From: Tubulanus polymorphus
Taxonomy: Eukaryota; Animalia; Nemertea
NCBI RefSeq assembly: GCF_964204645.1
Contig: NC_134026.1
Location: 10,129,950 to 10,193,949 of the forward strand
Length of the DNA: 64,000 nt
Direction: 5' to 3'
Part shown: positions 3,011 to 54,269 of the stretch, piece after piece
Numbering within the stretch: position 1 is the first letter of the stretch
How the letters are laid out: each line of letters starts with the position of its first letter
Translations under genes and position numbers: made by a program
The notes under the pieces: generated by a model
Databases searched by the model: none
Told to the model about the DNA's origin: nothing
The model's input: the letters and a program-made list of their open reading frames with translations, nothing else

Positions 3011-5729
3011 CGTGACGGCGGTCCTGGTGTGTATCTCAATAAGGGCTAATGGAATGCACCTCCCTGACACCTAATGAGACCTCCATGGGAATCTGGACCC
3101 TAAGCCAGCACGCTCCAGTAGGGAGGAGCGTAGGGCGAGCAAAAGTGCTCCCACCTCCTAGCCAGTCGGGGAGACTGTTAAAAAGCGGCCGCAGGGCTAC
3201 GGATTATACGTAATTCATATTTTCTATGAATTATGTATAATTCATAGAAATGATTTATCTAATAATTCATATGACTACGATTAGTACCAGCCAAAAATTG
3301 TTTCCACTGGCATTGAAACAAACGCCGCTTGCCACAGCCATTCAATGTTTGGACTTAACTGGCGGGAAAATATGTAAAAAATATGACTGACGAGTAACAG
3401 CGCTGTGTTAGAGCTATGTCGCTACACTGCTGAAGTACACATCATATTGCTGCACTACTACTCAATCTTACGGACTATGTTGGAAAAACAGCCCGGCGTG
3501 TACTGAACTACCAAGACGGCGGAAAAGAAGAGACGGAAAAACGACCATCATGTATAAATGAAGCAGTTTGAAGTTGACGAGATCTACTCGCAAAAATGCA
3601 GTCAGTCGATCCACGCCCTCTAAATCAACTGATAACGGATTAACAGATATCTGTGAAATGTCAAATGTATGTGGGAAACTGTACTTATTTTTTAGTACAA
3701 TGATTACTTTTTGATGGATTAAAGACATACTTCACCAGTTATTGTGTCAATTACAAGTACAACTTGTCCCCCTGAGTTGAATTAGAAAATTTATATTCCA
3801 CAATGATAGACAATACAGAGGACCAGTCAGTTACCAAAACATGGATTTCCCATAGACACATGAGAATGACAGCTTCAATGGCCAAAGTGGCTGGTCTTCT
3901 GCTGTCTTGAAAAATAAATTTAAAAATCGTGAAAAATAAACGTGCAGACAGTTGAGAAATGTCAGTGTGACGACCTCTTGCATTGCTGCTCAAAACCCGT
4001 TGCGGTAAGGTCAGAAGACACTGTCCGTTGGCTACCACGTAAAATAGTGACTTACGTCGGCAATATCTGATGTCTTCTGAAGATGACCCGGTGGAAAATA
4101 ATAAACAGCAAGAGCAGATTCAAAGTGACGATGAAGGTATTTATTCAGCCTAGTCACGCAACAACCACGCGTATTGTACGATACAACTTTGGAACTTTAT
4201 TGAATTTGGAAATCTTATATGTTATGTTTAACATAAGGATCAATAAAGAATTGAATCGAATTGAAATTGGTATGTCAATCAAACATTTCCATTGGCTACA
4301 GGGGGAAATACGATATTAAACAGCATTTTGTCTTAGTCAAAAGCATAAAAACTGCCACTACTAAAACTACCAGTAACAAGACAATGACAAGTTTCTTAAT
4401 TTCTGGCTTTCGTGGGGCATTTACTTATTATCCTTGAAAAATAAAGGTTCTTATTTTTAGACATTTAAGTTCTTGAAAATACAGGAAAATCATCAGAATT
4501 TTGGGGGGTTGGCACCTCTGAATATACATGGTAGTTGGTTCTCCACAATGACTCAATTAGACACTCTCCAGGTGTGTGGTGTGAACCTGGATGCTAAACA
4601 ATTCCATTTATTACATACACTGTGTATGAAGTTTCAGGGGCGGATCTAGGATTTTCCATGGGGGAGTGTCCAATGAGAAAAAGGGGCATTTTCTACGAAA
4701 CACCACGTACTCCGGAGACTTCTACACCATTTTAGCGTTGTTTTCATTTCCCTGAATACATAAAACTCGGAATGGAATCATAAAACCTGGAATCTTAAGT
4801 TAAAACCCGGAATCGTAAAATAAAACCCGGAATCGCACGCACCTGTGGATATAATTAATGCTCCCCTGAAATTCTCGAGATTGCGGACTCCAGCTCATGC
4901 GAAGTCCCGGCCCGGTGACAAAAAAAATTTAATACATCTGACACGATACAATTTTACGAAATAGTATAGCGCACGTTTTGTGGATCGTTTTTTATACTTT
5001 TTTACACGTTGATTCTCAAAAATTGCATAATTTCGTATATGTAAGTATGTCTTTACACCTGATAATATATAAATCATATGATCATGGTCTCAGGTCTACC
5101 CGCCCGTTAATAAAAAAATGGGCTAATCAATGGTTGATCAATAATGATTCATATTCAATCAATGTTGATTGATATTGATTGTTGATTTAACAAATAAGGA
5201 CGAAAGGTACCGGTACTTTATAAGACAAGTTTATGAATATAAATGAATGTTTGGTAGAATTTATGAAGAATTGAATGAGGCATGGTGATCATACGGTACC
5301 TGGTCTGGGATGACAGGTGGGGTACCGATTTAACTCGTTTCATGCTATGACTTATATATAGGCCTATGAGTAGTTACAACCAACCACCCGATGCAAAAAC
5401 AGCCCTACCATACCCTTTTTGAGTATCATAATGGGCTGTTAAGGACCATATCTGAATACAGAGATGGTAGAACCTAGATAGGCCTACAAGACGCGGTAGC
5501 GGGATGCTATATCACTGAAAATTTTCTAAGTCCTGTGAATCATCATTTTTTTCCTTAAATAGAAAAATAAATTCGACGCAAAAAGCTTTATTTTTATAGA
5601 TTCAAATTCAAACTACGTTTTCTTACTCCAAAGAACTTTTTTTCAGGCCTAGGCCTACCAGTATTTTTGCTATGTTGTGCTCTATGATACAATTAAATCA
5701 TAATATATTATTTCTTTCAGAAATTCAGG

Positions 5730-8700
5730 ATGATGGAGTCTCCGATACCATTATTCAACTATAACAGCTCTAGCTGTTACCTAAATTCGATTGTGCAGTG
5801 CCTACGGGGCTTAACTGAATTTCGAAACAAGATTACCCAACATACTTTTGTGAATGAGTGTAAGTTATAAAACGTGAACCTAACCCTCCTTGGAGCTTGA
5901 TAACCAGTTTAGGCCCCATAAAAAGACATACTTAACTATAAACCATACAGATCTATTTCTTTGTTGCAGGTTTTAAAGATACGTGTTATAGGTGCATGCT
6001 TGGAAATGCCTTTGAGGGCAATAATGATGAGTTGTTTATTCATATAGAAGGTAATTTAAACTTAATATGCAACAAGTTTAGCTCTATCACAAATTAAAAT
6101 GGCCCCTGTTTGCAAAAATAAAAATCCAATGTGCCACATTTCATAAGCTTAAATTTTTGCCTGTATTAGTGTGTGAACACTTCCGGTCATATGTTTCAGA
6201 TATTATCCCAGATGGTGACCAATTCCATCAACAAGACGCTGAGGAGTTTTTTCAGGGACTAATGAAAAAACTGAAAGAAGAGGATCCGTAAGTTTGATGA
6301 GGTTTTATGGATTCAGTTTTTACATTGAAAAATCACTACACCTACATTATTTCTGGTCCAGATAAGGGAATGTGTATAAACGAGGCAAGCCCTTTCTTAC
6401 CTATGCTTTGCTATTACCACACTAACCTACCTGTTCCTAAAAATTAAATTTTCTGAAATAAACTGAATAAACTGTTTTTTCCCATTTTAGACTGAATATC
6501 TTGTGGCTCTATTAATTGATTCAGAAATGCATGTATAATCTTTAATGCCTATTGCAGGTCATTATTTGAAATGTTCCTAACCAACTGGCGACAAATCAGT
6601 AAGTTTTAAATGTAATATAACATGACTTCATCACAATACTGGAAGAATGTTTTAACAATTCATTTTTTGTAACTTAACATTGATCATGGATTATTTCTAG
6701 CATCCTGTGATCAGTGTGGGGAGAAGTCTGTAATACATGACGGCTCGAATATAGTTTCTCTGCCTTGCTTGGTGAGTTTTCATATTAAAATACAAGTATT
6801 TTGTTTTTCTTTTATATGTTTTTATTATACAGTTGGCCTACATAAATATGACCTAAGCATGACCCTATGAAATTCCTAACAGTCATAGGTCATATCTTTT
6901 ATCCATTGGTTTGGGTTTGATAAATGATAGTTGTTGGTCTTTTCGGCTAGCCCATGGAAGTAGAAAGAAATTACTGACTACCCTAACATAATATACACAA
7001 ACATGATTTTGCATTTTTTAAAGGATTATACAAATGGCACTTCTATTACTGATGTGCCTCAGGCACTGAAACTGTTTGGAGCGAAGGAGAGGTTGAATTT
7101 CAATTGTTGCCAGTAAGTTGAACAGAACCTCCATGTAGATTAAAGATCAATTGGAGTAAGTCCCCAAAAATCCCTCGCTTTTGATGAAGTTATTCCTATG
7201 TTCAATTAATTTCAGGTGTGATTCCAAGACAGCAGTTCAAAGCAGACAGTTTATTGGAGGCGAGAAATATTTAGTCCTACATTTAAAGAGGTAACTGAAG
7301 TTCTATATCTTTTCTATATCTTTAGGACAAAAAAAACTACATGAATGTTCAAATGAAAAGTACATATCATGCACTGACATCCTGGATTTTGATGTGCTTG
7401 CCTACACAAGTTAGGTGGAAAATCATACGAAATATTATATTTTTAGGAAACTGAGGAGATAGTATGTATTCTTATTCTTGCTTTCACTTTGTGTGTGGTC
7501 ACCAACTTAAATGTTGTATATAGTGGTTTATTATATACCGTATATATTATAGTACTCCTTTCTGGAAGAGTAATTGATCAATGAAATGAATTGTGTTACC
7601 TACACTGTGGCTAACTTTGCTTAATGGTTATGAACTGATTTACAGTAGTTTTCTGATGAGGAGTGAGTGCTGCTTATAGGCTAATATGATTGAAATAATT
7701 GTAACAGGGGAATATATTTTGTGTTTTATGTAATGTAATCATTATCATTTAATAATAATATTTTATATGTTTTGCACTTAGTGGCTTAATGTAATCCGCA
7801 CCTATCTACAAAATGATTTTGTAGCGCTTCCATAACTGGCTGGTGTTCATCATAATATGATAACTTTTACATGAAAATACAACTGAAAATCATATATACA
7901 TAAACATAATATATACATAAATATACATAAACATATACATAATAGATGTATATTAATTATATGGTATTCTATCGTATTATTTTCTGCTTGCTATGCTTTA
8001 TGATTATATTATTAATATGCCAAACAGCTCCCCGGTCCCGGAGTTCACCAATGAGAAATCATAATTTTGTGATGCTGCAAAATGTAACTAAACCACTAGT
8101 GTATACGTGCACAGATAATATGTGGACGATGTATCTAGATGAAGCTCTATTAATTTATGGGACTTACATTGGAACTAGCTTCATTTTAAATGTGCATCAA
8201 TTATTTTATCATATTACTATTTACTTTCAGGTACACATTTGATGTCTCTTCAAGATCGCCTATTAGGTTAGGACATAGTATCTACCCTCCAGTTGGCTTA
8301 GAAGCTAGAATCGGGGAAAGTTTAGTAAGTTTCTGTACACTCATACTCAATTTTCTAGAAACACATATGCCCGTTTAAACTAAATAACTGTGCTGTGCCC
8401 CCGGTCATGGAATTAGGGTTGAAAATGTCATGAAGACCATGAACCCAGAAAGCCGGATCATTCCCATTGCACATACAGCATTTTATAAATAAAGAAAAAA
8501 ATTTCAGAAGAGATATAAATTGAAGAGTGTCGCACTCCATGACGGTCAATCAACAAAGTCTGGCCATTATCGAACAGTGGTGGAATATAATGGCCGCTGG
8601 TTCACAGCTGATGATGAACAGGTATTTATCCATATCTTTCAACATTCATCTTTCCAACATTTACCACAGTTAATATTCTAGTATTCAACCACATTTTGAA

Positions 8701-9063
8701 TTGTAATGAAAGAAACTTAAAGTTGAGTAACTTTCAATCGGCTCAGCACCACTGATGACAATACTACTAGTGTATACACCCACAATGTAGATTCAAAAAA
8801 CAGTAACTATTGTTTTTATTCTGGCGTTTGAAGTAATAACTTAATTTTGTTCCCACTGTCTGGATATAGAAAATAACCAACAACATATACCTCGAGGATT
8901 CTAATCCAATTACTCGCTTGACAGGATCAGTATGGGTTAAACGTTCGGTCATTGTGCGCATCAATAATTTTGCGAGATTATACTATTTTAGGTGGATTTG
9001 GTTGATATGAGAAAAATGGACATCTCGAAAGAATCATTCCTTCTTTTTTATGTAGTGCATAAT
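5730..9063 (+). CDS. multi-exon ubiquitin-specific protease (USP, peptidase C19) domain
   Basis: GT-AG exons 5730-5859, 5970-6050, 6200-6287, 6558-6598, 6701-6771, 7024-7112, 7216-7290, 8231-8324, ~8479/8511-8621 and 8992-9063. They give the Cys box NSSSCYLNSIVQCL, QQDAEEFF, the finger Zn sites CDQC and CCQC, LVLHLKRY, the His box YKLKSVALHDGQSTKSGHY, WFTADDEQV and FLLFY. Intron phases match at every junction except the acceptor near 8479-8511. Confidence 0.9.
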
Positions 9064-9254
9064 GTAAGTGTACCAAGTTTCGTAGTTAGTTAACTAATAA
9101 ACAGCGTTGATATTTAGTTCTGTCTGTTTATTACCGATGTTGTCTTGAAAGAAGCGTTTTCAGCCACGTAGAACCTGTTTCAATTCATTAGCTCACTTTT
9201 GTTGATTTAAAAAGTGTTAGCCAATCGCTTAATAAAGTCGTTTAATTTTAACAG

Positions 9255-10948
9255 GATAGTGATCCATCTGGTATAGAATATACCAAGGTTCGGGCTCAAG
9301 AGTCTACATATCTGGTCAGTAATAACTCCGACGATCAAGCTCCAGATGTCTCTGGTATCAACGTGGAGTCCGAAGATTTGGACATAAACATCAGAAAACG
9401 AAATGTGAGTTTCTATTAATGGTTCATTCTGTTAATAAACGGTTATAGATCAAATGAAAATTGTAGATATGTAGTAGGCCAGTCCTAAAGGACCCCCTAT
9501 GTCACCTTATGGTCTGATTTAGGTGCAGTCAACTATGGCTCCTCACCGAAATCTGATGATGATTAAAGCAAAGGAGTCACTAAATTAGCTGGCTGACTAC
9601 ACCTATGATAGAACGCTGTAGAAGACAATTTTTATCTGATTGTAGTAATATAATATGCTAAACTAAATTCATTTCAGTATTCATCATTACAAGATAAGAG
9701 AAAAATCTATAATAAAAAGCAGAAAACAGGAAAAGGGAACAAGTAAGTATTTGAATCAGGTACAGATCTAGCCTGAAGTAGTTACGGTAGTACATATGTT
9801 TATTTATCAATGTTACTAGATCAATTTGAAAGGCACCCATGAAAGCCAACAGCTTGTTGCAAGAGTCACTTTGAACACCCACACAATCAAAACATTCGCA
9901 CTCAACAATCTCATTACAATCAAATACAGTAGAGTCCAGCAAACTCAATTATTGTGCAAACTTGAATAGATTCGTAAAACATTTAAACATATAATTATTA
10001 TTCTACCATAAAATCAGCTAACTCGAATGAAAACCGTATGTACAAATTGATTCAAGTTAAGCTGAATCTTCTGTAGTTACATTGAAAAAGTAAAATTTTG
10101 CATTATGAAAAATTTAAATTATTTCAGTGGAGGTCGATTTAGATGCAAGATGTGCAGCTTTGTGTGTGCCACTCGCCAGGAAATGACAGATCATCAGGTG
10201 ACCCACTTAGACTATTACATGGAAGAACTGCCGGGGAAAGGTAAGATTTTGAAGTATGCGTCAATTCATCTGTCTTTCCGACAGTACGATATTTTCAGCA
10301 TGCCATCATTGGTATGTACATGTTTCTTCCAGAGACACTACAAATTTATATTTATATTTATTTATATTTGAGCTGTCAATATCTATAATACCAGTACCGT
10401 ACATCTCTTTTTGTTGTTTCGCAGTGATGTTCAAGCTTCAGAATTGTCTCGTGAACTCAGAGAAAATTCTGTCTCAACAAAATGCACTGATATGGTAAGA
10501 TTATCGGACTCATCCAAGCGTGACACCATAATTATATCTGACTCTGATGATGGCAACTCGATTTCAGGGTAGGTGTATGTGTATTAACGTGACTGTTTTC
10601 TGTTTATTGGTGAAACCATATATATTTCCCCAAAAAAATTGGCTGTGGTAACAGTGGCTGTAACCAGTGAACAATACAGTATAATTATGCATTATTTTAA
10701 CCAATAATCTTGCCGAAATCATGATAGTCATGCAGTATGTTGTATTATTTATTCCATCCAGGTTGAGTTCAGTCAATCTGTTACCCAATTATAACTCTTT
10801 GATTCCACACATTTTTATTGCCTTCCTCAAATCTTTGACACCTAGTACTTAATGTAACACTTTTTTTTCAAGATGTTCACCAGTTATTCATGTCATATCA
10901 GATGTTGAACAAGATTCAAATGAAGATGACAGTAGTGCAAACGACCAG
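9255..10948 (+). CDS. linker exons with a C2H2 zinc finger and acidic SIM-like motifs joining the USP domain to the transposase
   Basis: Exons 9255-9404, 9678-9742, 10128-10240 (FRCKMCSFVCATRQEMTDHQVTH), a putative 13-nt micro-exon 10299-10311, 10425-10568 (TIIISDSDD) and 10873-10948 (VIHVISDVEQD). Phases run 0/0/2/1/2/2/0 into the transposase exon if the micro-exon is used. Confidence 0.65.
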
Positions 10949-11293
10949 GTATGTTTCGTTTCTGAATCGTTATGACTTATTTCTACTGAACTCAAATATT
11001 TTTCCTTCACTAGGCTGAATATATTCAATCAATTCCCTACTAGTCCTTCAATTCCAAATGCTATGAATTTTCTATGGAACCTCCAATTAGAGGGCTGTTT
11101 TTCTCATTTGCCCTGTCGTTGGGACTGTTATATCTTCAAATTGATATGAATTTGCTATGAATGTTCTCTAGGGGCAACCCCTGTGGGTGGGACTTATTTC
11201 TTCACATTGATATGGATCAAGGCCATCTAACAAGCAGCGGAGCTATATCACGCGATAGACTGCTTGTTGTTTTATAAATTTTTTTCTTTTCAG

Positions 11294-13795
11294 ACATACC
11301 GGTATTACAAGGGTGATGAACAGTTACCAATATTTTTGGATGGTAAGAAAGACCACACAATCAATGAAATGTTCTTCGCCATAAGAAAAGCGAAAGAAAA
11401 GTGTAAAAAAGTGCCAGTCAATATTTGTCACAGTGTGTTCTTCCTTATTGATTTGGAGAATGTACCTTTGAAAGAATTAAAATGTGACAGCAATGGTGTT
11501 TACGAACATAAAGGCAAGTCTACAATGACAGTCAGAAAACAAGTTGATACTATCACTATAACGTCTAAAAGAAAATTACCTTTGGGTAGCTCTGGCGACA
11601 ATTACCATATTGTCCGTATTTATTATAGACATGCCGACTATCCTGATTTTTCTAGGAAAATTGTTTATTTTGTCAACAATCAGGGAAAGACTGTAAATGA
11701 CACTGCACTCATATCATATGCTTTTGATGGTGAGCCCCACCCAATCATCGTTCGACCACATGGCAACAGCAAAAAAAGTAAGAGGCCTTATACTAGAATC
11801 AAGCCATCTGTTATTAATAAAGTTAAAGATAAGTTAGTTGGTGTGTCTCCAAGAGAAGCTGTCATGACACCTCTCTCTGAAGCGGATGGCCTGGCAGACG
11901 TGCCAACCTTGGCATCAGCCTATAAAATAAAGCATAACGCGAGACAGGTTCATCACTGCAATGAAGAAGATGAACTTACAGCCATGATGGAATTGGCGAG
12001 TGGTGAACTAGCTGATTTTATACAGAGTATTGAGGTTTGTCCGAATTTAAATGTTGTACTCTTTACACCACAGCAGGCTGAGGATATAGGTTTCTTTTGC
12101 ACAGATCCTATAGACTTCCATCCAATCAGTATTGATCCAACATTTAAATTTGGAAAATTTAATGTAACGCCAATAACGTACAGGCATAAACATTTATTAT
12201 GCAAACGGACTGGAAAAAACCCTATATTTACTGGGCCTATGTTGGTACATTTTAAAAAAACCCAAGAAGCTTATAGGAAATTGTTTAGCTGCTTGAGTTG
12301 CAAGTACCCTGAACTGAGTAACATATTAGCATTTGGCACCGATGGTGAAACGGCGTTGAGTTCGGCTGTCCATAGTGCCTTGCCTGATGCCATACACTTG
12401 CGCTGCACAAGGCATTTAATGGCAAATTGTCAATTAAAATTGTCAAAGCTCAGGTGTGATAGTAATGAGATCATCAAAATTCTTGCTGAAATATTTGGCG
12501 ATAAAAATAATTCAGGGCTAATTGATAAATTGACACCGTCATCGGCAGAAAAAAAATTCTCCGAGCTGCGCTGTCGGTGGGATTGTGTTTGCCCTCAATT
12601 TAGCACATATTTTGCAGACTTGATGCCAGTCATTAAGGAAAATATGATAGCCGGTGTTCGATCACAAGCTGGCCTTGGATCTCCACCTGATACCTTTTAT
12701 ACTAACGATTCTGAAGCTTCAAATTCGCGAATGCGAAAATGGATGGGAGCTACAGAACATGGTCTGAGTTCATTTACTAAGTCCTGCCGCCATATGATAG
12801 AGTCTGAGCGAGAGGAGGTAGTAAAAGCTTATGCTGGAATCTCGGAATTATATGAGGTACGCAATGAATTTAAAGATGCATTGCGTATCAATTACTTCCA
12901 AATGACTCCTGAACAGCGTTCTTCACGTTTAAGTGACATCAGGTTATTAACTTTGCATCACATGCACAATCAGTTTAACTCAGTTCGCCCTAGCCAAACA
13001 TCTTTGTCCATATCATTGGACAAAGCTTACAGCTTTGTATCATCAATAACTAAATCGGTTTTTGAAGGCATGTGGAAAAAGGCTTGTGAGCTTACTAGCA
13101 ACCATTCACTCATAGCTCCTGCTCCTAGTAGGGACCCAACTATATTAAAGTTCAGCACCATTAGTTACTCGTCTACAAATAATAATGAAGTTCAGGTGTA
13201 TTTAAGCACTGCAAAATCAACTTGCACTTGTAAACGATATAAATATTACTATGTTTGTTCACATATACTTGCCGTGTGTGAGAAGTCTGGAAAATTAAGT
13301 CAGTTTTTAAATTGGTACAAATCTTCATGCAAAAAGCCAAATAGACTGGCCGTTGCCACTTGCGATGTAAATATGCTCTCTGTTGGTCGCAAGGGGAACA
13401 ATCCTCGCAGAAATCAAACACCCGCAGTAACAAATATTACAGAAGCGAATACCACCGGTACCTCAACAGACTTTCAGTTAACTTTTCTTCACGGTTATCA
13501 AATAAAAAAATGTTATGGCTGTGGTGTACCATTTGACGAAAGTGAGAGAAATCCCCCAAATGATCTGATCCTGAAAAAGATTGATTACCGATTCTATAAA
13601 CATCAAATAACTGGTGTACCTACTCAAAGCAATAAACCACAGAATACTTATTACCATCTCAATCGAAAGTGTGTTCAAAAAAGATATAAGAACTTTGTTC
13701 CCACACAGGTAAATTGTACCCCAGAAATGCGGAATAATTTACAGCAATCACACGCTACACGTTATGATCGTTTCTTAATGTATGGCTCTGGTTGA
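11294..13795 (+). CDS. MULE (Mutator-family) DDE transposase exon with a SWIM finger and a C-terminal Cys/His finger
   Basis: Uninterrupted 833 codons after a strong acceptor (ttttcag, 11293). D1 SIDPTF (12134), D2 GTDGE (12341), CxxH RCTRH, E in TNDSEASN (12713), SWIM CTC..VCSH, and C-terminal CYGC..YYHLNRKC. Confidence 0.93.
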   Translation, partial: TYRYYKGDEQLPIFLDGKKDHTINEMFFAIRKAKEKCKKVPVNICHSVFFLIDLENVPLKELKCDSNGVYEHKGKSTMTVRKQVDTITITSKRKLPLGSSGDNYHIVRIYYRHADYPDFSRKIVYFVNNQGKTVNDTALISYAFDGEPHPIIVRPHGNSKKSKRPYTRIKPSVINKVKDKLVGVSPREAVMTPLSEADGLADVPTLASAYKIKHNARQVHHCNEEDELTAMMELASGELADFIQSIEVCPNLNVVLFTPQQAEDIGFFCTDPIDFHPISIDPTFKFGKFNVTPITYRHKHLLCKRTGKNPIFTGPMLVHFKKTQEAYRKLFSCLSCKYPELSNILAFGTDGETALSSAVHSALPDAIHLRCTRHLMANCQLKLSKLRCDSNEIIKILAEIFGDKNNSGLIDKLTPSSAEKKFSELRCRWDCVCPQFSTYFADLMPVIKENMIAGVRSQAGLGSPPDTFYTNDSEASNSRMRKWMGATEHGLSSFTKSCRHMIESEREEVVKAYAGISELYEVRNEFKDALRINYFQMTPEQRSSRLSDIRLLTLHHMHNQFNSVRPSQTSLSISLDKAYSFVSSITKSVFEGMWKKACELTSNHSLIAPAPSRDPTILKFSTISYSSTNNNEVQVYLSTAKSTCTCKRYKYYYVCSHILAVCEKSGKLSQFLNWYKSSCKKPNRLAVATCDVNMLSVGRKGNNPRRNQTPAVTNITEANTTGTSTDFQLTFLHGYQIKKCYGCGVPFDESERNPPNDLILKKIDYRFYKHQITGVPTQSNKPQNTYYHLNRKCVQKRYKNFVPTQVNCTPEMRNNLQQSHATRYDRFLMYGSG

Positions 13796-15959
13796 TATCT
13801 GGTTATGAATATTGTTTAATTTCAATTATCTTTCTTGTAAATTTACAGTTTGCTGCTACTGTTTGGTATGTATTTTACGCATTACTATGTCAAACTTGTA
13901 TAAGCTTTTTCATGGAAAATTTCATTTGATTTAATTTTGTACTTGTCAAATTGTTTGTTTACTTGTGCTATATCAATGAGTGTAGTGGTGTGTCTATCAG
14001 ATTCTATGGTAATAATTAGCACTGCATATGTTACAGTGCACCATCTTCTCGCTATCCTTTATTCATGTTGGTGTTGGGTCTGTGGAGGGTTGGTTGGTAC
14101 CCCAGAAGTGTGGAAACTGGATAAGAAATGCTTGAACACTAATATATGAATACATTTATGGTTAAAAATAATTCTAGAAAATGTTCAATGAATACATTTT
14201 TTGGTTGAATCTAATGTGCACTGGTTTTTGAGTTGAATACTGCGTATTGTTTAGGGGTGCCAACATTTTCTATTGTGGTGGTCGGCTTCACTTTTAACAC
14301 TTGTGTTCTAACTCTATGCTTTCACAAACTATACAATGCGTGTAGACTAGGAGTATGGATAAGTCGAATCTGTTTAGTCAGTGACTAACTTCGGCTTCAA
14401 AAACTAAGATACATGTATCTATGAAATCTGAAATCAGGGTTCTCCAGCTTTTGCTATGTACATACTTGTCAATCCTCTTACTATATGGTCATTATCTCCA
14501 CAAGACTTTGAATATGATTACACGTGTCTTATTTAAACCTTACCCAATTCTAACCAAAAGTTTTTATGTTTTAATTAATTCTGGATTTTGTAACACAAAT
14601 CATATAGTGCTGATGCTTTACTGAACAGCTTGCTTAGTGCATTTTGCATAGTGTGTTTTTGCATAGTGTGTGCTTATTCAGGCAATTGTTAGTCTATATT
14701 TTAATCTTTGTCAACCATAATAATGTAAGACATAATTAAGATTTTTCAGGATGAGAAAAATATCGTACAAACATGGTTTCGTATTGAGAAGAATCCTACG
14801 TACTACCGGAGTTGGATTGTAATATTAATCACCCTTACCATTTTCGTGATCATTTCTGAATTTAAACTACTACAATCCACAGTCCATATATATTTGATTT
14901 AAATATTTACCAGTATCATATAAATTTTACTATGATTACAAATATTTAAAAAAACTAATACAATGGAAATGAACTTACTTTCTGACACACTTTGTAGATC
15001 GTATGTTAAAGTAAAGTAATATGGATAACTACGTAATACTTGTGGTAGGTATGATAATATGTAATAATAGTTCTGTTTATGTAATGTACCGGTTATGTAT
15101 GTGAAAACAGTTGTGAAGGCAGCTTCAAAATAAATAAAATATTTTAATGAAGATTCTTTGTCTTTGCAATAAGTTCTTTGAGGATATTGGCCTATTTCTG
15201 TTTTTGGAGGATTGGATTAAAAAATAATAAAATCATCGTCAAACCGGGAGTTTCGTATTTAAAAAATCGTTCTTCGACTGTACCTAAACTGGAGTAACTC
15301 CAGGCCGTGTAGCCCTACGTACAATACGCGCTCGTTAGGTTATTCCAAACGGCCCCATTACACACCGGCCGGTAGGTCCTATTTACAAAAAAAACAACGT
15401 CCGCGAACTCTGGGTTTGACAATGTTTAGATCGGATGTATAGTCCGATAATACATAATCTGCATAACAAATTCAATTCAAAATAACTTTCCACGTCGTTC
15501 CGTGTTTCAATTTTTTTTTTTTTTTGGGGAGCATTTATTTTACATTTCCGGGTTTTAACTTAAGATTCCAGGTTTTATGATTCCATTCCGGGTTTTATGT
15601 ATTCCGGGAAATGAAAACAACGCCATTTTAGGGGGTGCTTTCAGTCATTTCATGCGTTGAAAAAATATTATAGGTGGAAAACCTTGGTCAAAAAAATTTT
15701 GTGTGACATTTTTGAGAGCACTTCAATGTTGAGGGGGTTCCCGACATCCCCGCTAGATCCACCCCTGAGTTTGTTAGGCAATTGATTTTTGTGAATTGAA
15801 CGATTTGCATGATTCACTGCCCCCTTTCCCAATTTCACTGCCTTTTTTTAAAATCATTTTTTCAATTCGCTCCTATTCACTGCTAACATTGCCCGCAACA
15901 AACCTTGGGTAGTGAAACAAATTAACCGACGACGAATTAAGTGAGGTCGACTGTATATA

Positions 15960-31568: not shown

Positions 31569-33343
31569 TAATATTATCGGGTGCAGCCTTCACTCACCGT
31601 GTATTCCGAAAAAAACTTGAACAGGTATGGAAAGTCAGATTTTATGCACTGGTTGTACAGACTACCTCATTTCATATCATGTTAGATTTATATGAACTTC
31701 TTTCTTAGAGGAAAAACAGTTGCATTGACAGCCGGCCTATCGATGTGTGACATTTGCCATAATATTAACCATACATCAAGTCAGGCATTTGTCGTCCAAC
31801 AGGTTAGGCAAACCACTCTACCTGTATGAGGACTTGTCGTCTGTGAAGAGACAAGAGTCTATGAATGTTCAAGTGTTCAAAAGCAGGACAAAAGCCGACA
31901 GACGGACTGACGAAAATGCTGGCTTAATGTTTACAACAAACATTGAAATTGCTCAAACGCGCAGGTAGCCTATTTACTATATCAACCATTTGAAATAAAA
32001 ATATAAATAAAATAGTACAAATTCATTCCTTTTTATAGGAAATCGGATAGAACTGTGGTCATTCCATTTTTGGATTTGGCAGACACAGATCGAATAACAA
32101 CTACCAAACTGAACCGTATGATATACAACAGTGTGCAACCAATTGATATGATGGTATCACTGCATGATAAGATAAGGGTGGCATTGAACGGATAGAGGAA
32201 CTGGAAAAAAATTGTCTTAGCATCCCTAAAACTTAGATCAAGAATGTGTTTAGACTACACGCTCTTGCTTATTGTAGCAGAAATTGTGATTTTCTATTGT
32301 ATTTTCTATATTATTGAATGACTTGAGTGCGGTTGAGATGAGTCAAGTAGACATTTACAATTTTTCTTATAGTTCAGTAGCAAACTGAAGAACATTCAGT
32401 TTGATGAGGTTCTGAAATTCATGACATCAACCTGGATCGATAAATTATCCACCATCTATACGAGTGAATCAAATATTGATCACATTATTTTGAGAATAAT
32501 AGATGACAACGAAGCTCAGGTGAGAATATGATCAGTTAGATTGTATAAAACTAAATTAATAAGTGCTAGAATTACATCTAAGGCAATAGTTTCTCTTACA
32601 ATGTTCACTATATTTTGCTTTCAGTTGGAGAAGACTGTTAAAACAATAAATATTGGAGGTGTGCCTTCAGTGGCTATAAACTCGAATGATTGTGATCTGT
32701 GTGATGAATCAACATCATTAGAGAAGTTGGCAGAAAGTTTGGTGGTTTTCGCAACAGCATTGTGCAAATGGCAGGTACGCACATGTATTAATTGTGGAAT
32801 GCAAAAATAGTTTAAACAGTTGTCATAATAAAATGATATCAAGCCATGTATTTTACCAATCAATTATTATAATTATAGGAACAAATGGAAAGAGAGTAGC
32901 GAAAAGGTGCCTAACGGTGCCACTAAATTCTCTAGCACCAGCTACGTTGCATAGAATAAAATTGAAAATTGGCAGTAATGGCAGGTATATTATCATTACA
33001 TCATTTGCATCATTCAATTTAATGACTTGATTCGGACTCAGCATTTCCATTCCAGATATAAACTTTAATTCAGACCCTGACTATCTTCACATGAAAGTGG
33101 AACCGAAATGGAATCAGAATCTTCACACGAGAATGAAACTGTTCCCGCACCCGAACTGCAATCGGGATCTTCCAACGAAAGTGGATAAAAAAACTGATCC
33201 CGCTCAAAAAGCAATCAGAATCTTCACACGATACTGAATCGGATTCTGAGTCGGAACCTGAACTGGAATCTGAAACTAAGGAATCAGAAGCTGAATCTGG
33301 TTCCACAATTAGTGAAAATGGTAATAATCATATGTTTACTATT

Positions 33344-36300
33344 CTGCCCTAGCATGATAAAAGGCAGTAACTCAATTTTTGGGGAAATTTATTTTTTCAA
33401 CTTTTCTGAAGTAAAAGAATGTGCGCAATCACCTGGTCAAGTCCGTTTTTTTATATATAGTTCGGTTTGTGAGATATAGAGGGCGCTATTTGAAAAAAAA
33501 CCCTGTTAAGCGAGATAAAAAGCAGCATCTCTGGACAAGTATACATCAATCTCGGAACAAACAACAGTAACTCAAAGATACTGCGTTTCAACATAGTGTA
33601 GTTACGAGTTGCTGCTGTTCATAATAATCAATAACAGAGATACTGTTATTTAAGTCACCAGCCTATAAAGTTACTGCTTTTTAAAATATCGCGCCGCGAA
33701 GTTACTTTCTTTTAAAATACCTGCAATCAAAGTTACTGCTTTTCTACATACCAGGAACCTCGAGTCACTTCTTTTTCTACTACTCTAATTTTCTGCATGT
33801 GCTGCCATCTATTGAGTGATAGTAATACCACGCTTGACACTTTTCTTAAATGATCTTAAAATCAAACTTGTTCGCTACTGAGTTAGGAATATATTCAATG
33901 AAAATCAAGTTGCACAATTCAAATGATTAGTTAATGTCAATTTATGAGATAACTTTCAGTCATGTTGGACGTTGAAGCTGGTATAGATATTCACCAAATA
34001 TATAGGTTTCAGTAAGTCATATATTTAACTTTTTTAATGATGAAGATTATAATTGGTAATTACCATTTTTTGACGATCACTGTGACGTACTGCAATATGT
34101 CGTCCCGTGGAATGAAAATGCTACAATTGGCGCTAGGGAAAAGGTCTCCTGGTAAGTGTCATTTATTGTTTTGTAATCTGAAGTTGAGGGGTGTATATAT
34201 TCATAGATACTGTCTAAATGTCGATTAGGTTTCATTTATGGATCGATGAGCTTTAAAAAGATAAAGTTGGTTATTCTTTTATTGAAAAAAAAACGAATGT
34301 CCAAAGTGAAGAAAGTACCTCCTTAGTAATAATTTCTGTACACTCATTATTCTCGGCGGTGTAAATTAAAACGATTACTCGCGAATAGATAAGATTGCTT
34401 AAAAAAGCCACCTTCGTTGAAACATCTGATATTTTAAATATTTTCGATTTCTTTTTGCCACTACTAAAACACGATGGGTTCTGAGAAAATAACTGCTGAT
34501 GTTTAAAATATATTAACATTTTGTTTTTAGAGCGAAAACGGAGACGCTTAACGCCGACAATTCTAACGCTGCCGCCCATACCTGGACCTGTAGTCACCCA
34601 CGTTGATTTTGATGGAGATGTTCCTGTGGGTGAAGGGCTATTAGAATTAAGCACATTAAACACAACGATAGACATGAATTTTGTCAATCAGCTAAACGAC
34701 GATGACGTCAGTGATCCAAATATTGATTCAGAATTAGGTGACATAGCCCCCAATAGTTTTGAGAACCATATAGATGAAAATGTCACTGCTGATGGATATC
34801 AAATTGTGATGCGTGAACCAGCCGAAAATCATGCAGCTGATGAAATCATCACTGCTAGCGGACAGCATACTAAGATGGTTAATCTAACCGCTGAAAACAA
34901 CGTCGAACATCAAGATGAAGATAAAGAAAATCAACCAGAAAAATCGAAAAAAAAGTATAAGTACAAAAAAGAAATGCGGACCCATGAAGGCAGAAGAAAG
35001 CGAGATTCTGCGAAGCATATATTAAAAGCTGGTTGCAACGTACAATGTAGAAGGATGTGCTGTGAAGTCATATCGGAGCAAAGACGTGAGGCAATCTGGG
35101 AGGAATATTGGTCTTTGGATAGTTATAATGACCGAAGGAAATTTATTTACAATTACGTTGGTCGCACAACAGTAGTTCGGAAAACAAACGGTGGTGATTC
35201 TAGGCGGAATTTCAGTTTCAGATATTCATTTCTCGCACAAGATGGGAATGAAGTCCCCGTTTGTAAAACATTTTTTCTGACAACGTTAGGCTATCACCCA
35301 AAAAATGATTCGATTGTTTTCAACATTATGAAGAATACACCTGTCACAAATATGTCACCTGCAAATGATAGACGTGGAACAACTCATAACATGAAAACTA
35401 TCGACAAGAATATTATTAAAGACCATATTGAGGCATTCAATCCGTGTGTAAGCCACTATCGGCGGGAGCATGCGCCCAATCGGCGGTATCTACCGTCAGA
35501 CATTACAATAAAAACAATGCACCACGATTTCCTAGAAAAGCATCCTAATGGTTGTAGCTATACCACGTACCGACACCAAGTTTCAGAGATGGGTATTAGT
35601 TTTGCTAAGCTAGGAGAAGAGCAGTGCGAGCAGTGCCTCAAGCATGAAATCCACACTAAAGAGGACCACAACCTAGCAGAATGTTCAATTTGCAAAAATC
35701 AGGAAGCCCATGCAACCAGAGCAGAAACAGGAAGACGGCATTACAAACAAGACGCTGAATCTGGCCAGTTAAACGACACTATTATCCGTGCAGCAGATCT
35801 GCAAAAGGTGATCATGTTGCCCCGGATGCCAGGAATAAAGAGCGTACTCTTCACTAAACGATTGGTATGTTATCATGAAACGTTTGCGACAGTTGGCAAA
35901 AAGAGTAACACATGTAACAAACGGCCCAATATTTCCATCATCTGGCATGAAGGAGTTGCTGGACGTGCAGCAGAAGAGGTTTCCTCTGCATTTTACAATG
36001 CCATTTTGCAGGACAGCACGTACGAACACATCGTATTCTGGCTTGATAATTGTTCAAGCCAGAATAAGTGCTATTGCCTGTTTACAACAATGATAACATT
36101 AGTGAACTCAGAGCTCATCAAAGCAAAAGACATCACATTCAAATATTTCGAACCAGGCCACACTTTCATGGCTGCTGATAGTATACACGCTGGAGTAGAA
36201 GCCCAATATAAGAAGGTTCCAGGTGGAAACGTATTTAATTTTGATGATTTCCGTCATGTAATTTCTGATTCAAATGGTAGAACAATTGATGTGATTGAAA

Positions 36301-37379
36301 TAACAAATGACGACTTTCATGCCTGGACTGGGAACCAGTCGCTGGCAAAACTGGGTAAAGCTGGCCGCCCACTTCTTAAGGAAATAGTATCGTTGAAATT
36401 TTGCAGAGGTTCAGTCGAAATCCTCTTCAAAAGTAGCCATGATGAAAAAAGTTGGAAAACGTTTTCCTATCTGAAAAAGAATGTGTCCTTGGCAAATCTG
36501 CGAGTTCCAAATTTGATACGCGAACAACAACGTGGCTTGTTGACAGAGAAAAAGGCTGACATTGTGCGAAAATTGTGCCCCCTGATGCCAGAATCGAAAC
36601 GTGCATTCTGGGAGAATATGCCTAACAGTGACAATGTTATCGATCTTATTAATGCTGAATAGATGGAGCTGAAAGAGCTTGATTAACTGTGGCTGAATAT
36701 TTTCTTTAAATATACGGACAGTTGATTAATGAATTCGTTTATTCCTTTTCACTATATTGAAGATTGAGATTTTTGTTATTTGTTATAGTTCGAGTTCGGT
36801 TAAATTTTTCTGAATAAAAAGTTATCTTTTAAGTTTCAAGTAAAATTGTGAAACTTCTGTTTTCTGTAGTATTGAATGTTTATCATCAGTTTGTCCGCTA
36901 TGCAAGCCTATTTTAAGATACGAGCCCACAGTGTTCTCGGTCCCGTTTGAATATCGGGATCCAAACACCACCTGTGTGGACTGAGGTTACTTCTCTTTAA
37001 CTGAACACAAAGATGTTACTGCTTTTTATTATATTTCTCTTGAAGTTACTGGCATTTAACATTTTACAAATTGGAGTTGCTGCTTTTTATGCGGACACGT
37101 TTTTGGAATACTTCTTTTCTTATTATCAGGGACACGTAAAATATGACTCAATTTTCTGTCAAAAAGCAGTAACTGACAAAATATCAAATAATTCTGAAAA
37201 AAATGAATTTTTTGCCATGAAAATATGCGTAACCGTGTTTTGGAATGAATTGATTGTAATGGTATGAGATTTGAAGAATTTATACTAACTGGATCGATGG
37301 GGGAATGCCGTGAATCTTAAATCGCGTTTTTCTCAAAACTTTAAAAATTAAGTTACTGCCTTTTATCATGCTAGGGCAG
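33344..37379 (+). mobile_element. Sola1 DNA transposon, apparently full length
   Basis: TIRs CTGCCCTAGCATGATAAAAGGCAGTAACT at both ends; 4-bp TSD TATT (33340-33343 and 37380-37383); subterminal AAGTTACTGCTTTT repeats at both ends. Confidence 0.88.
34097..36662 (+). CDS. Sola1-type DDD transposase, two exons (34097-34151 and 34531-36662)
   Basis: Phase-1 GT-AG intron. Motifs VCKTFFLTTL, SHYRREH, C..C..H, DLQKVIMLP, WHEG.AGR, WLDNCSSQNK and GHTFMAADSIH; no stops. Confidence 0.88.
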
Positions 37380-38015
37380 TATTAATATTGAATACAAAAT
37401 GATGAATAATGATTAAATTGATAATTACAGTGAACCTCAGTTAATTTGTATTGCTTTGGAGTGTCTTAATTGTTGATTTTAGGTAGACAACTTATTAGGG
37501 TCAATGACTTTAATAACGGTTAGGCCAATAATTCTTTATCTTTTCTAGCTCATTTGGTCAAAGGAATCGAAGATCTGCAAATCCAGAAAAAAAGCGACGG
37601 ATACTTGTCCTCCAGAAGTATGCACTAGTTCAACAGGGAAGGGACAGTGGATTGCATTAGATTTCGGTGGTCACTGGTATCACAAAAAAAATTTGTGTGG
37701 TTATCAGTTACTCTATACAAACAATTGATCAGAATCAATGAGAAATGGAATTGATTGATTGATTGATTGATATTTTATTTACATAGAACATATACAATAA
37801 TACAGTATTACATATACTGTACATATAATATTGTCCAACATAATGAATCAGTGTAATGAAGATATTGTCAAAATGAATTCTACGTACTATTATTATTCAA
37901 TTATTTGCTATTTGCTTTTGAGAATTATTCCATGGATGTACATGATGTCCATAAGTTATGCAGCAGACTCACGGACAGAATAGAATTACAGCTAACGTTT
38001 CTGTCATCCTACATA

Positions 38016-44339: not shown

Positions 44340-46011
44340 TGTTGTTATCGCTATCTGAACGAGGCTGATAATACTTCCGGGGTGCACTTAAGCTGCACTG
44401 GTCTACCTGGTTTTCAATTGTTTAACCTTGTCACGACTCATAGGAAGTACCAATGTATGAACTGTACCGATATTCCATCGGATCTCAAATTTCTCCAGCA
44501 GCCATTCCCGGTAAACGTTGCTGTACAGCCATGTGCTGATTTCGCTGTACAGACTGAAGAACTGTCGTCAACATGTGTTGCCATTCAAAGTGATGAGATA
44601 TCGCTACCTCCGTGTAGGGCTATCACTGGATTAAAAACCTCAAACTGTGGAACCCAAACTGATATCATCACTGATGGCCTAACTGAGACCCTGATGATGT
44701 CGAACGCTATCCTACAGTCGACTGTCAGAGAGTTTGAGGCAAAGCTGCTTCAAAGACTGATGAATGCCAGTCTTGAGAATGAAAGATAGAAGCTGGAGCT
44801 TGCAAATAAATAGATTAGCGAACTTAATAACCGTATTGCGAAATTAAAATCCGAGAGAGCAACCAGCTCATGCTCTAATTGTAATGTGCTGAAAAACACT
44901 CTCACTGAGAAATCTGATGAATTGAACCGCATAGTCGAGAAATACACTTCCGAGATTTGTCAGCTCAGAGAAGAAATTCTCCTGAAAGGGGAGGTTGTGT
45001 TAGAGCACAAACAAACTTCAGATGAACTGTTCTTGGATCTTGCGACAGCAAACAGGTCGTTAAAAGAACATGTTAAAGAGATTGATGATCTTCGTCGTCA
45101 AATAAAAGCATCCAACGAGAACAAGAACTTAAAAAAGCGAGAAAGACTATCTCTGACCTGATGAGTGTCACAACATAAAAATGCAACTATCTGCTGAGTC
45201 AAGCTCTGAGCCATTCAAGCCAGTTCTGAATAATAAACGACGTCAACAATGGAATACGAATACCGAACCAGGAGTCTGTCCCTCGGTATCACCGGTTCGG
45301 AAAACCACCGAAGTCACTGATGTTCTTATCGTTGGAAATTCCCATACCCGACGTCGTGTGGCATCAAAAATGTTCAGACACAAAAAATGCGACGTCTCGA
45401 CACCATCTGATAAAACTATTAGGGGTGCAATGAACTACGTAACGTCGAGTCGTCAACGAGTGATCATAATTGTTTTACACGTCGCGGATAACGATCTAGC
45501 CAATCTCTGTTTTACAGAAATGGAGAAACTAGTTAATGCCTGCAGGGAAACCTTCCCAGATGCGAAAATCTGTATCTCGTTGCCTCTGTCGAGAAACTGT
45601 GCAAGCTACAATAAGACCTGTGCTGATTATTCTACCTCTGTAAAGAAATTGGACAGGATTCATACCATTGAACACCATTTGGATCGTAAGTTATTTGCTG
45701 AGGATGGAATTCACCTCTCTGGACCTGGCGTCGCTGCTTTTGTGAGAGGCCTCAAAACTGTTTTGAACCCTCTTCTTGGACTTAATCCGACCAATTATAC
45801 CAGACCTACCGAACATAGGCCTACCAACAATCGCACTCAGTTCCGTGGAAATATTCGATATAATTACAACTCTCGTTCATCCAACTCTCGTTCCGTCCCG
45901 AATGACAGATTCAACAAACCTGGCAGATTTTCCGGTAACCACTCGTCCAATAACCGAGGTCGCGTGCAGTTGATGGATCTCCTCAATGCATTTATGGACA
46001 ATCGTTATTAA
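44340..46011 (+). pseudogene. CR1-group LINE ORF1 (PHD, coiled coil, SGNH esterase), disrupted
   Basis: HLSCTGLP..YQCMNC (PHD half), a heptad-rich region, and SGNH-like blocks IVGNSH, LHVADND and DGIHLS. Confidence 0.85.
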
Positions 46012-46247: not shown

Positions 46248-48182
46248 AACAAGAGCCCCAAGGGGCACAATGGCCAGCCTGTCAGATTTGCTTTTTATAA
46301 ATGATGTAATCTGTGGGTTATATTTATCAATATACACTCCCTGCTCAATATCATTTACATAGTAAAATCGTGTGTTAACACAGACAGCAGGAACGAATGT
46401 AATATAGAAATACTAAATTATTGTATTGTTCAACGCCCCCTGGTGGCCATAAAAAAAACCAATGAGCTTGAAACTCACCTCGATCATAGAACATGTCATG
46501 AGCTACAACTTTCCAATTGATTATAGTAGCAAAATATGCTTAAGTATCAATTATGATGTGGAAAAACTTTTTTTCCACCTAGGAATGAGTACTGATGACC
46601 CCAAGATGGCTGCCAAGTGCGTCATAATTGCCTGGTCAAAAATACCCTCTCGGATATAAAAGATCCCTTTCCAAAGAATACCCATTACAAATTGCAATGA
46701 AACATGGCGCACCATTAGAAAGCTACAGTACTCAGAATTCAGGCCAGGCCAAAATTGACATTTTTGGGAACAAAAAAGGTCACAGTACGGCCATCTTGGG
46801 TACGATCGACTCAATTTTTCTCATGCCGATGGGCCCTCGGGGGATACAAATATATACGAATGATCAAGGTATTAAACATTTTTTGGCAGAATAAAATTTG
46901 ATTGAATTTGCAATTCGGGGACATGGCTAATTAGCATATCAAGGTCATACACCCGATTTGGTAAAACCTTTTTTTCGCGAAACTTGCGCAATTGTCAAGG
47001 ATGAATTTTCTGTAGAGCAAATAAAAATTCCTCCCAAACACCAAATCAACTAAAGATTTCATAGAAATCGATCTTGAAATACAATTTTAAATCTTAAAAT
47101 AAAACCCGGAAGTAAAACAGTAGACGATACCGCGGATTCACGTGAACACCTGATTTCTGTAAACGAAATGTTGGTTGTGACAAAATTGTTCAGACGGTTT
47201 TAGGTGGTAATAAGTACGGAAACGTAACGACCATGGTCGACTTATTCGATGAAATCAGGACTATGTGATATCCAAATTTTGACTTTTTTATTCTCCAGAC
47301 CTCCCTGATATAGAAATAAAAAATTTTGGTGGTACGAAAGTGCAATCACAGCGCCGTCGGGGACAGAGCCGTGTCAGAGATCGGCGGAGTGAAAATTGAG
47401 GTGGACGAACACGAAGAAGTAGGCTATTGCGCTACTTGAATCACGAAAACTCCTGGCGCGGCCCCGACGCTTTTCGTTGATTAAGTAATACAAATATCAT
47501 GCAATGGGTTTTCACAATCTACCGCTGGTATTTACCGGATTTCAATATCACTCCAAAATTCAAAGAAACCTCGAAATATCGAACCGGAACACTTCCGGTA
47601 GATATCCGCGGCTGCCCAACCGGGAAACTTATTTGTTTCAATAGATATTGATAGGATCCATCATCTTCACCCGTCAAGGGATTCGAACCCACTAAGCTAA
47701 AGCCATGCCAGAATCGGGTCGGGCCAATCACAGCGCTTGTAACAAACCACATTAGGCTTCTGTGGAATTTCCCAGTAAATGGGCCAATCAGCGAACACGT
47801 AGCGAACGTGGAAGTATTGTCGCGTGTTGATACATGACGTCATGCGCAAAAGCGCCAGTAATGAAATCGCGATAATTCACGTGAACAGCTGCTGATATTT
47901 TCAGATAAACCAATCACAGGGAAGACAGAAACTTCCTGATTGGCTGATACAAATTGAAATTTTCCCAATTTAACTTTCGTGAAAAATGCAGAAAACATTT
48001 TTATGAGACCCTATTTCAAAATTCTGCTCGCTACGATTCCGAGAATGGATTACGCTTAAATACGTGATTTGTTCGAATATGCCCTCACTTGGCAAGCAAA
48101 AGAGCCTTTAGTGTGGAAACCATGTCATTTAAATTCGCTCCATTTGTATAGTAATAGGCTCAGCCTACGGCTGGCCTAATAA
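46248..48182 (-). mobile_element. non-autonomous Helentron (HINE/DINE-like), copy 1
   Basis: On the minus strand it starts TTATTAGGCCAGCCGTAGGCTGAGCCT and ends GGCTGGCC..GCCCCTTGGGGC-TCTTGTT: sub-TIR pair plus a 3' hairpin, T-rich ends and no TSD. Near-identical to 49125-51508. Confidence 0.85.
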
Positions 48183-53460: not shown

Positions 53461-54269
53461 GAGCCAAAATTTATATCTTTTGATGTTGCTAGCTTATTCA
53501 CTAATGTTCCTTTAGAACCTACTTTGGACTTTCTTAGGAGAAAGTTACCTACTTTAGATTTTCATTTTGATATACCAGTTGATTGTCTTTTGGACTTAAT
53601 TGAACTTTGTACAAAAAACTTATATTTTCAATTTGGTTCTAACTTTTTTGAACAGATTTTTGGTATGGCTATGGGGAATCCACTTTCCCCTGTTCTTGCT
53701 GGTTTATTTTTGGAACATGTCGAAAGTGAAATTCTTCCTCTTTACACTGAAAGTAGACCCAAAATTTGGCGACGTTACGTTGATGATATTCTTTGTTTAG
53801 TTTCCCCCGATTTTAATTTGAATGGATTCTTACATAATTTGAACTCTTTATATCCTACTTTGAATTTCACTTTTGAGTGGGAAGAAAATAATTGCATCCC
53901 GTTTCTCGATGTACTGATTCATAATTTCAAAACAAATTTGAAATTCTCTGTATATAGAAAACCGACTAACGCTGAAGCTTATCTTCATTTTTTCTCATTT
54001 ACTCCTTTGAACATCAAAATTTGAATAGCCCAAGGATTATTTCTTCGAGCTCTTAAGTATTTGTGACCAAATGTTTTTAGATAAAGAAATCAAACATATA
54101 AGAACTGCTCACAAGAAACTAGCCTATCCAGACAAAATTTTGAACAAAGCTTATTTCAAAGCCCGAATTTCTCACTTTGGACATAACGACCTGACCACAA
54201 AACGCAGAGCTCAAAAGAATATTATAATCCCGTATTTACCTACTTTGGAACGCTTTAAATCCACATTAA

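Follow-up and report, generated by a model that had tools for sequence, protein, structure and literature searches.

A Mutator-like transposon of Tubulanus polymorphus with a predicted ubiquitin-specific protease fused to its transposase

The window analysed here is a stretch of 64,000 nucleotides of contig NC_134026.1 from the nemertean Tubulanus polymorphus; it is intron-bearing and rich in other transposons. Positions 4736 to 15622 of the window are a complete 10.9-kb Mutator-like (MULE) cut-and-paste DNA transposon, whose exons are predicted to join a compact ubiquitin-specific protease (USP, peptidase class C19) to a MULE transposase. The two arms of its terminal inverted repeat (TIR), 4736–4824 and 15534–15622, are 96% complementary across 89–90 nt, and CCATTTTAG flanks the element on both sides (4727–4735 and 15623–15631). 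In 49 reads of run X4 (20 and 29) and in one contig of run X3, position 4726 is joined to 15623 with the 9 letters in common. Since the 9-mer is single in this uninterrupted host repeat, it was duplicated by the insertion and represents a true target site duplication (TSD). Intact TIRs and a perfect 9-bp TSD had been proposed in an earlier, sequence-only reading of the window; both ends are confirmed, the TSD by the reads of the uninterrupted repeat. TIRs of 14–500 bp and TSDs of 8–11 bp are described for the MULE superfamily (Dupeyron et al., 2019; PMC6446971), and the 89-bp TIRs and 9-bp TSD found here lie within both ranges. Beside the high-copy host repeat, the summed read depth exceeds 1000 in run X1.

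The TIRs contain an 11-bp sub-repeat, AAAACCYGGAA, which has eight matches in the window as opposed to 0.09 expected; six of the eight are located at the two ends of the element. The sub-repeats are likely transposase binding sites. Between the TIRs, 16 exons are predicted from 5730 to 13795, with AG/GT borders throughout. The features of the locus are, in order:

4635–4735, unstranded: left part of the interrupted host repeat, which is short and high-copy, has a short terminal inverted repeat of its own and resembles a miniature inverted-repeat transposable element
4727–4735, unstranded: left TSD copy CCATTTTAG, the 9 letters in common with reads of the uninterrupted host repeat
4736–4824, plus strand: left TIR, 89 bp, with AAAACCYGGAA sub-repeats at 4782, 4802 and 4822 (20-bp pitch), that at 4822 running just beyond the arm
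5730–5859, plus strand: exon 1, with start Met, oxyanion Asn10 and catalytic Cys16 (codon 5775–5777)
5970–6050, plus strand: exon 2, USP thumb (splice borders and alignment to the Tubulanus homolog)
6200–6287, plus strand: exon 3, QQDAEEF box (UCH profile 85–105)
6558–6598, plus strand: exon 4 (splice borders and homolog alignment)
6701–6771, plus strand: exon 5, first CxxC of the USP fingers (profile match)
7024–7112, plus strand: exon 6, first Cys of the second CxxC (homolog alignment)
7216–7290, plus strand: exon 7, in which the second CxxC ends, with an LHLK motif (homolog alignment and profile)
8231–8324, plus strand: exon 8 (splice borders and homolog alignment)
8508–8621, plus strand: exon 9, His box SGHY (His243, codon 8565–8567) and Asp258/Asp259 (UCH profile 198–233)
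8992–9063, plus strand: exon 10, last USP strand (homolog alignment and profile)
9255–9404, plus strand: exon 11, acidic low-complexity linker (splice-signal prediction), poorly conserved with 20% identity to the homolog
9678–9742, plus strand: exon 12, basic stretch and possible nuclear localisation signal (splice borders)
10128–10240, plus strand: exon 13, C2H2 finger (zf-C2H2 E 0.008; 47% identity to the homolog), one base shorter than in other copies
10425–10568, plus strand: exon 14, Ser/Asp-rich linker with one motif (IIISDSDD) like a SUMO-interacting motif (SIM) (splice borders)
10873–10948, plus strand: exon 15, acidic linker (splice borders)
11294–13795, plus strand: exon 16, MULE transposase of 833 aa, uninterrupted, with D281, D350, CxxH 371–374 and E474 (exon numbering), a SWIM finger and a C-terminal Cys/His region
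15534–15622, minus strand: right TIR, 89 bp, with three AAAACCYGGAA sub-repeats
15623–15631, unstranded: right TSD copy, supported as the left copy
15623–15767, unstranded: continuation of the interrupted host repeat to the right of the element

Exons 1–10 (5730–9063) agree in phase and form a single open frame of 285 USP residues. As the sequence-only reading had it, these ten small GT-AG exons splice into a whole USP/C19 domain with its triad, Cys16, His243 and Asp258 (the third triad residue), next to the oxyanion Asn10. When exons were scanned singly against the Pfam UCH profile, three of the nine tested match, in profile order (exon 4 being too short to scan): exon 1 at E 2.3e-4 (profile 8–31), exon 3 at E 0.016 and exon 9 at E 3.6e-7, with exon 9 alone clearing the cut-off. 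The spliced domain spans positions 18–323 of a 326-position USP profile which was built from 67 giant-virus USPs, independently of the window, and scores 95 bits, whereas none of 200 shuffles exceeds 3.8; a UCH match of the spliced exons, a test set beforehand, was thus obtained. All eight invariant columns of a 69-sequence USP alignment are kept (Asn10, Cys16, Asp83, Glu86, Gly236, His243, Tyr244 and Asp259). The QQD box, the fingers and the GHY element are ubiquitin-binding parts of USPs. Chance stitching of exons was rejected, given the collinear and near gap-free alignment to an independent gene model.

The fold was predicted on the USP domain of a Tubulanus homolog (44% identical to the window USP), which stands in for the window protein. 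From a 69-row alignment, it was modelled with a predicted local distance difference test (pLDDT) of 88.7 and a predicted template-modelling score (pTM) of 0.88. Best matches of this model in the PDB are USP12, USP46, USP36 and USP30, with template-modelling (TM) scores of 0.82–0.85 at ~20% identity; by this model, the thumb-palm-fingers USP fold is kept. USP18-ISG15 is also among the structure matches, and USP-fold enzymes acting on SUMO or ISG15 exist. The model further resembles those of the two best giant-virus USPs (TM 0.79–0.81), and the nearest clusters in the ESM Atlas are compact Nucleocytoviricota USPs (0.95). The resemblance to viral USPs may reflect shared small size. No close USP relative was found in viral contigs or in phages, and a viral origin of the domain was rejected, as the similarity is ~20% and cannot be separated from that to cellular USPs. 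The window USP is ~20–26% identical to cellular USPs, and the only cellular sequence match of the Tubulanus homolog is a zf-UBP/UCH protein (E 1e-5). Compact cellular USPs (USP12/46, USP36, USP30 and USP2) and giant-virus USPs have the fold (TM 0.82–0.86 for the cellular ones), the triad, the QQD box and the zinc-finger cysteines in common with the USPs described here. The window and Tubulanus USPs differ in being only ~20% identical to them in sequence, in being free of accessory domains and in containing a one-residue insertion before the catalytic Cys.

Exon 16 contains the transposase. Its SWIM match passes the Pfam cut-off (E 2e-6), whereas its MULE match (E 2.6e-4) reaches 21.8 bits against a cut-off of 27.6; the relatives P0039 and P0056 clear the MULE cut-off. 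A transposase profile searched against the PDB matches a Mutator-family transposase best, at only E 0.11. D281, D350 and C371/H374 are near-invariant in 18 relatives, and E474 lies within a TNxxE motif. A DDE triad with a CxxH after the second Asp is a hallmark of MULEs. A strong acceptor marks the start of the exon, and no Met occurs in it before residue 26, while homology to the Tubulanus models begins at its first codons, ahead of Met 26. The view that the DDE-SWIM exon is uninterrupted and begins at a splice acceptor rather than at its own ATG therefore stands. Since no start precedes the conserved sequence, the transposase would need the upstream exons, and the proposed USP-finger-transposase of ~1300 aa is upheld as a predicted protein. 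Neither Peptidase_C48 nor OTU was matched by Pfam in 12 exons, the transposase exon or the Tubulanus homologs.

The same architecture is found in two RefSeq gene models of Tubulanus polymorphus, XP_074658331.1 (P0236) and XP_074656700.1, which lie on different contigs and are annotated as uncharacterized. Both have the order USP, C2H2 finger, linker and transposase, and both carry UCH on the same chain as the N-terminal half of the transposase (E 2.6e-23 for XP_074658331.1, PF00443 3–254, and E 9.1e-24). XP_074658331.1 matches the N-terminal model of the window at E 1.7e-91, the sole such match among 254 proteins. The two models are identical across residues 1–712 and then continue into unrelated sequence, in one case Copia gag; the presence of the two loci, LOC141911244 and LOC141909914, on different contigs suggests mobility with the USP on board. 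Identity between window and Tubulanus amounts to 122/280 (44%) in the USP, 10/50 (20%) in the first linker, 16/34 (47%) in the C2H2 finger, 20/76 (26%) in the second linker and 86/234 (37%) in the N-terminal half of the transposase. The USP is thus conserved above the linkers (122/280 as opposed to 30/126, Fisher p 1.5e-4), with no difference from the transposase half (86/234, p 0.13). Among 145 BLAST rows for the N-terminal half, the two Tubulanus proteins rank highest, and their transposase is sister to that of the window with support of 93/95 in a 19-row tree, a subset picked from a 59-row tree with the OTU-bearing rows left out. With a conserved USP and sister transposase halves, both parts have been inherited together under selection, which speaks against a single capture, and the USP is likely lasting equipment of the transposon.

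A Pack-MULE is a non-autonomous element with a recent, fragmentary and unselected host capture. The element differs: its transposase exon is intact, its USP domain is whole and conserved across distant elements, and identity to cellular USPs is ~20–26%. A one-off Pack-MULE capture, which the sequence-only reading had named as an outcome that would speak against it, is contradicted by the Tubulanus fusion, the conserved USP and the sister transposases. That the element is nonetheless a neutral passenger carrier, with a host USP gene captured once in Pack-MULE style and unused, is the least credible explanation and already largely refuted: MULEs do capture host fragments (PMC6446971), the USP domain still has nine introns and the window copy seems to be decaying, but the fusion recurs in a lineage with only 37% transposase identity, where the USP is conserved no less than the transposase and the linkers are saturated, and the low identity to cellular USPs speaks against a recent host capture.

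Read depth in run X1 is ~82 over the element and 35–46 in flank contigs, and intron 7 occurs in two forms; in runs X1 and X4, another copy lacks 389 bp of it (7447–7835). The element family is low-copy and young, with about two copies in X1; the USP exons are also present in a second individual (run X4). A domesticated host gene was rejected as an explanation because of the fresh TIRs and TSD within a short repeat.

The proposal that one frame runs from the USP exons through the C2H2 finger into the transposase stands in part. The finger exon and the open transposase exon bear it out, whereas in the window copy the best donor behind the finger exon is off by a single base. One extra base after 10230, present in contigs of both X1 and X2 and in 8 of 11 X4 reads, brings the donor at 10240 into phase; in the window copy, the frame is kept only if splicing uses a weaker donor (10253) or another acceptor (10436). 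Both the contigs of X1 and X2 and 12 of 12 X4 reads have a poorer +3 base at the 10253 donor. Together, the extra base and the poorer alternative donor of the other copies indicate that the native junction of the family is likely 10240 to 10425. Exon 13 of the window copy has then lost a base, or the assembly contains an error; the copy is probably impaired by this one-base loss.

Several observations weigh against a functional USP-transposase fusion in the window and against its being widespread. The strong donor at 10240 has phase 1 and the next exon (10425) needs phase 2, which leads to a stop at residue 418 of the window copy. Reading through from exon 10 (9064–9101) meets a stop after nine codons, with an AATAAA at 9096. 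Compared with USP2 and with P0271, a zf-UBP/UCH protein which we take to be USP3-like, the window and Tubulanus USPs have the catalytic Cys one residue further from the oxyanion Asn. Of 40 variants among 274 rows, 28 were mapped, and all eight coding differences among them alter the amino acid, consistent with neutral decay once the element had inserted. In 9 of 17 X4 reads and in the X2 and X3 contigs, the transposase exon contains one inserted base. The Tubulanus models are automatic predictions that both depart from the transposase before the DDE core, and their sister support of 93/95 falls slightly below the strict threshold of the tool. Finally, a USP was detected in one of 254 transposase relatives, most of them single open reading frame (ORF) calls that are blind to spliced exons, and a search with the Tubulanus protein P0236 did not find a third USP-MULE fusion.

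The searches for further fusions covered a broad set of relatives. None of 107 transposase homologs (23–36% identity, most of them single-ORF calls) has a precomputed UCH domain. An exhaustive transposase search gave 3,333 matches at E ≤0.001, with P0236 among the 150 listed, and Pfam scans of 24 of 108 and 28 of 150 relatives, chosen for length, yielded one with UCH (P0236). In metagenomes, no relative was found among 219 pattern matches, and eight loci among 597 gave no USP signal, with at most 3.6 kb upstream as opposed to the 5.6 kb spanned by the USP here; the same test recovered exons 9 and 1 when run on the window. A search for longer transposase fusions returned one match, a kinase fusion.

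Related transposases carry other enzymes in the same N-terminal slot, namely OTU in Branchiostoma or a kinase in Sanderia. P0118 and P0256 (Sanderia malayensis) and P0108/P0265 (ENA contigs) have an N-terminal protein kinase (Pfam E 1e-30 to 1e-35) on a MULE transposase of the same type, and the two kinase-MULE groups are separate in a weakly supported transposase tree. OTU-MULE models of Branchiostoma (P0227, P0257–P0262, P0237 and P0266), with C2H2-OTU in B. lanceolatum, are annotated as uncharacterized; P0257 is a 290-aa C2H2-OTU isoform without transposase.

Other features of the window are listed for completeness. A ~3-kb tandem duplication with 93–99% identity occupies 46248–51508, and each copy has one AAAACCCGGAA unit (47101 and 50438) which resembles the TIR sub-repeat. 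Positions 33341–37382 hold an element with 40-bp TIRs (95%) and an intact frame of 720 codons (34500–36662), which has a weak DUF7869 match only and which we take to be a lookalike of Sola- or Zator-type DDD transposases. Broken transposon pieces lie at 552–1975, 52440–54024, 58177–58602 and 60468–63611; they comprise piggyBac-type (DDE_Tnp_1_7) pieces, a pogo-type (DDE_1) piece overlapping a reverse transcriptase frame, and pol pieces, presumably BEL/Pao-like. A frame of 284 codons at 45157–46011 has no Pfam match at E 0.001 and, in our view, resembles the SGNH-esterase-like ORF1 of some non-long-terminal-repeat elements.

Proteases of the ubiquitin and SUMO systems are known cargo of transposons; Kaonashi and Phantom MULEs and Zisuptons carry Ulp1. 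OTU domains occur on MULEs of Medicago (Babu et al., 2006; PMC1702500) and in MuDR-6_HM of Hydra (Table 1 of Dupeyron et al., 2019; PMC6446971), the latter study also listing SET in Phytophthora MULEs. OTU or Ulp1 is found on Ginger1 and Ulp1 on plant MULEs, and the Trichomonas vaginalis protein XP_001314237.1 combines Transposase_11 with Peptidase C19 in one chain (Bao et al., 2010; PMC2836005). UCH is carried by HLE2 Helitron-like elements of subgroups c and d (HELIANO, PMC11417382). A description of a USP-bearing MULE was not found in the open literature, including a term search of PMC12062965, with subscription journals, Repbase and Dfam beyond the search. The main text of PMC6446971 does not contain the terms peptidase, ubiquitin, protease or C19, and its Additional file 4, where the domains of each element are listed, is a possible place for such a case. 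The claim of novelty thus holds for one part: the pairing of a USP with a MULE appears undescribed, whereas deubiquitinase cargo as a principle is already known from C19 with Transposase_11, UCH Helitrons and OTU MULEs.

Comparison with these systems places the element beside the OTU and Ulp1 MULEs of Medicago, Hydra, plants and Branchiostoma, which likewise combine TIR/TSD cut-and-paste transposition with a papain-fold ubiquitin or SUMO protease on the transposase. It differs from them in having a protease of the USP/C19 class instead of OTU or C48, encoded by ten small exons. In the Branchiostoma OTU-MULE models, an N-terminal protease is followed by an acidic linker, similar to the window element, whereas the Medicago OTU is C-terminal. 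XP_001314237.1 likewise holds C19 and a DDE transposase in one protein, but the transposase is IS5-like (Transposase_11) and the host a protist, the comparison being by published mention. HLE2 Helitrons also carry UCH stably in a transposon lineage, yet they are rolling-circle Rep-helicase elements without TIR or TSD, and their USPs are compared here at the level of the Pfam family. Ginger1 is likewise an animal cut-and-paste element that has introns and a slot in which ubiquitin and SUMO proteases interchange; it differs in its Gypsy-integrase-like transposase and its C-terminal OTU or Ulp1, and has no USP.

What the protease does for the element can be approached from this arrangement. Cut-and-paste with a 9-bp duplication is established MULE chemistry. 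One mRNA very probably joins the USP to the transposase, and the USP is very probably an active deubiquitinase that cleaves ubiquitin. The transposase would bind the TIR repeats at their 20-bp pitch, cut, and paste with a 9-bp duplication, thereby tethering the USP at the element. On balance, we lean towards the view that the fused USP shields the transposase-DNA complex from ubiquitin tagging at the element ends. The main benefit might be local and in cis, a point on which our judgement is evenly poised: the complex would be spared ubiquitin tagging, removal or degradation, and ubiquitin repair signals at breaks would be erased. The USP would also strip ubiquitin from nearby repair or chromatin proteins, extending the lifetime of the complex. 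A role of such proteases in transposition and repair has been proposed (PMC2836005).

A rather unlikely but serious alternative is that the enzyme counteracts silencing. The fusion or a USP-only isoform would reach SUMO-rich silenced copies via its TIR-binding and SIM-like parts, deubiquitinate H2A or SETDB1/Eggless and re-open the promoter. Transposon silencing in animals requires SUMO (PMC9406493), and monoubiquitination of Eggless/SETDB1 is tied to it, according to the title of a reference in the same article. SIM-like motifs recur in the otherwise saturated linkers of window, Tubulanus and Branchiostoma proteins, and the zf-UBP/UCH match of the homolog points in the same direction. However, the SIM test was devised post hoc and reached significance neither for the window linker (967/5000 shuffles) nor for P0227 (497/5000), the low values of P0236 and P0266 derive partly from internal repeats, and the structure matches single out no histone deubiquitinase.

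The stop and AATAAA directly behind exon 10 make a USP-only mRNA possible, and the USP could then be mainly a separate short protein, produced by intronic polyadenylation after exon 10 and acting in trans, with the fusion minor or merely predicted. The annotated 290-aa C2H2-OTU isoform of a Branchiostoma OTU-MULE (P0257) offers a parallel. We regard this as improbable: exon 16 offers no start ahead of its conserved sequence, a conserved C2H2 exon lies between USP and transposase, and AATAAA is common in the AT-rich introns here, with three sites in introns 10–11. Very unlikely is a self-processing role, in which the USP-fold domain would cut its own polyprotein to free the transposase, as has been suggested for the Medicago OTU-MULE fusions (PMC1702500). 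The window linker does have one Gly-Gly right before the C2H2 finger, but it is not in the Tubulanus proteins, and self-cleavage alone would not demand the QQD box, fingers and GHY element, all of which are kept.

Ulp1, OTU and USP domains have been known on several transposon classes since 2006–2010, and a role for them has been proposed (Babu et al., 2006; Bao et al., 2010). To these, the element adds a compact and intact USP of 285 residues, set within an animal MULE whose ends are clear, and its Tubulanus homolog shows long selection. As a tractable system, it lends itself to the questions of whether ubiquitin is a means of host control over transposases and whether transposons counter such control. 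When the cargo of an animal MULE is rich in introns, annotation based on ORFs misses it, and the Tubulanus copies stand in RefSeq as uncharacterized host genes, which would inflate counts of host deubiquitinases. More speculatively, and rather doubtful as a whole, the element might belong to a marine-invertebrate MULE clade with an exchangeable N-terminal enzyme slot (USP, OTU or kinase) before SUMO-interacting motifs, whose USP form would be a SUMO-targeted deubiquitinase reversing the SUMO- and ubiquitin-dependent removal of transposases from DNA by the host. If true, this would mean a protein-level host defence against DNA transposons that is countered by a transposon-encoded enzyme.

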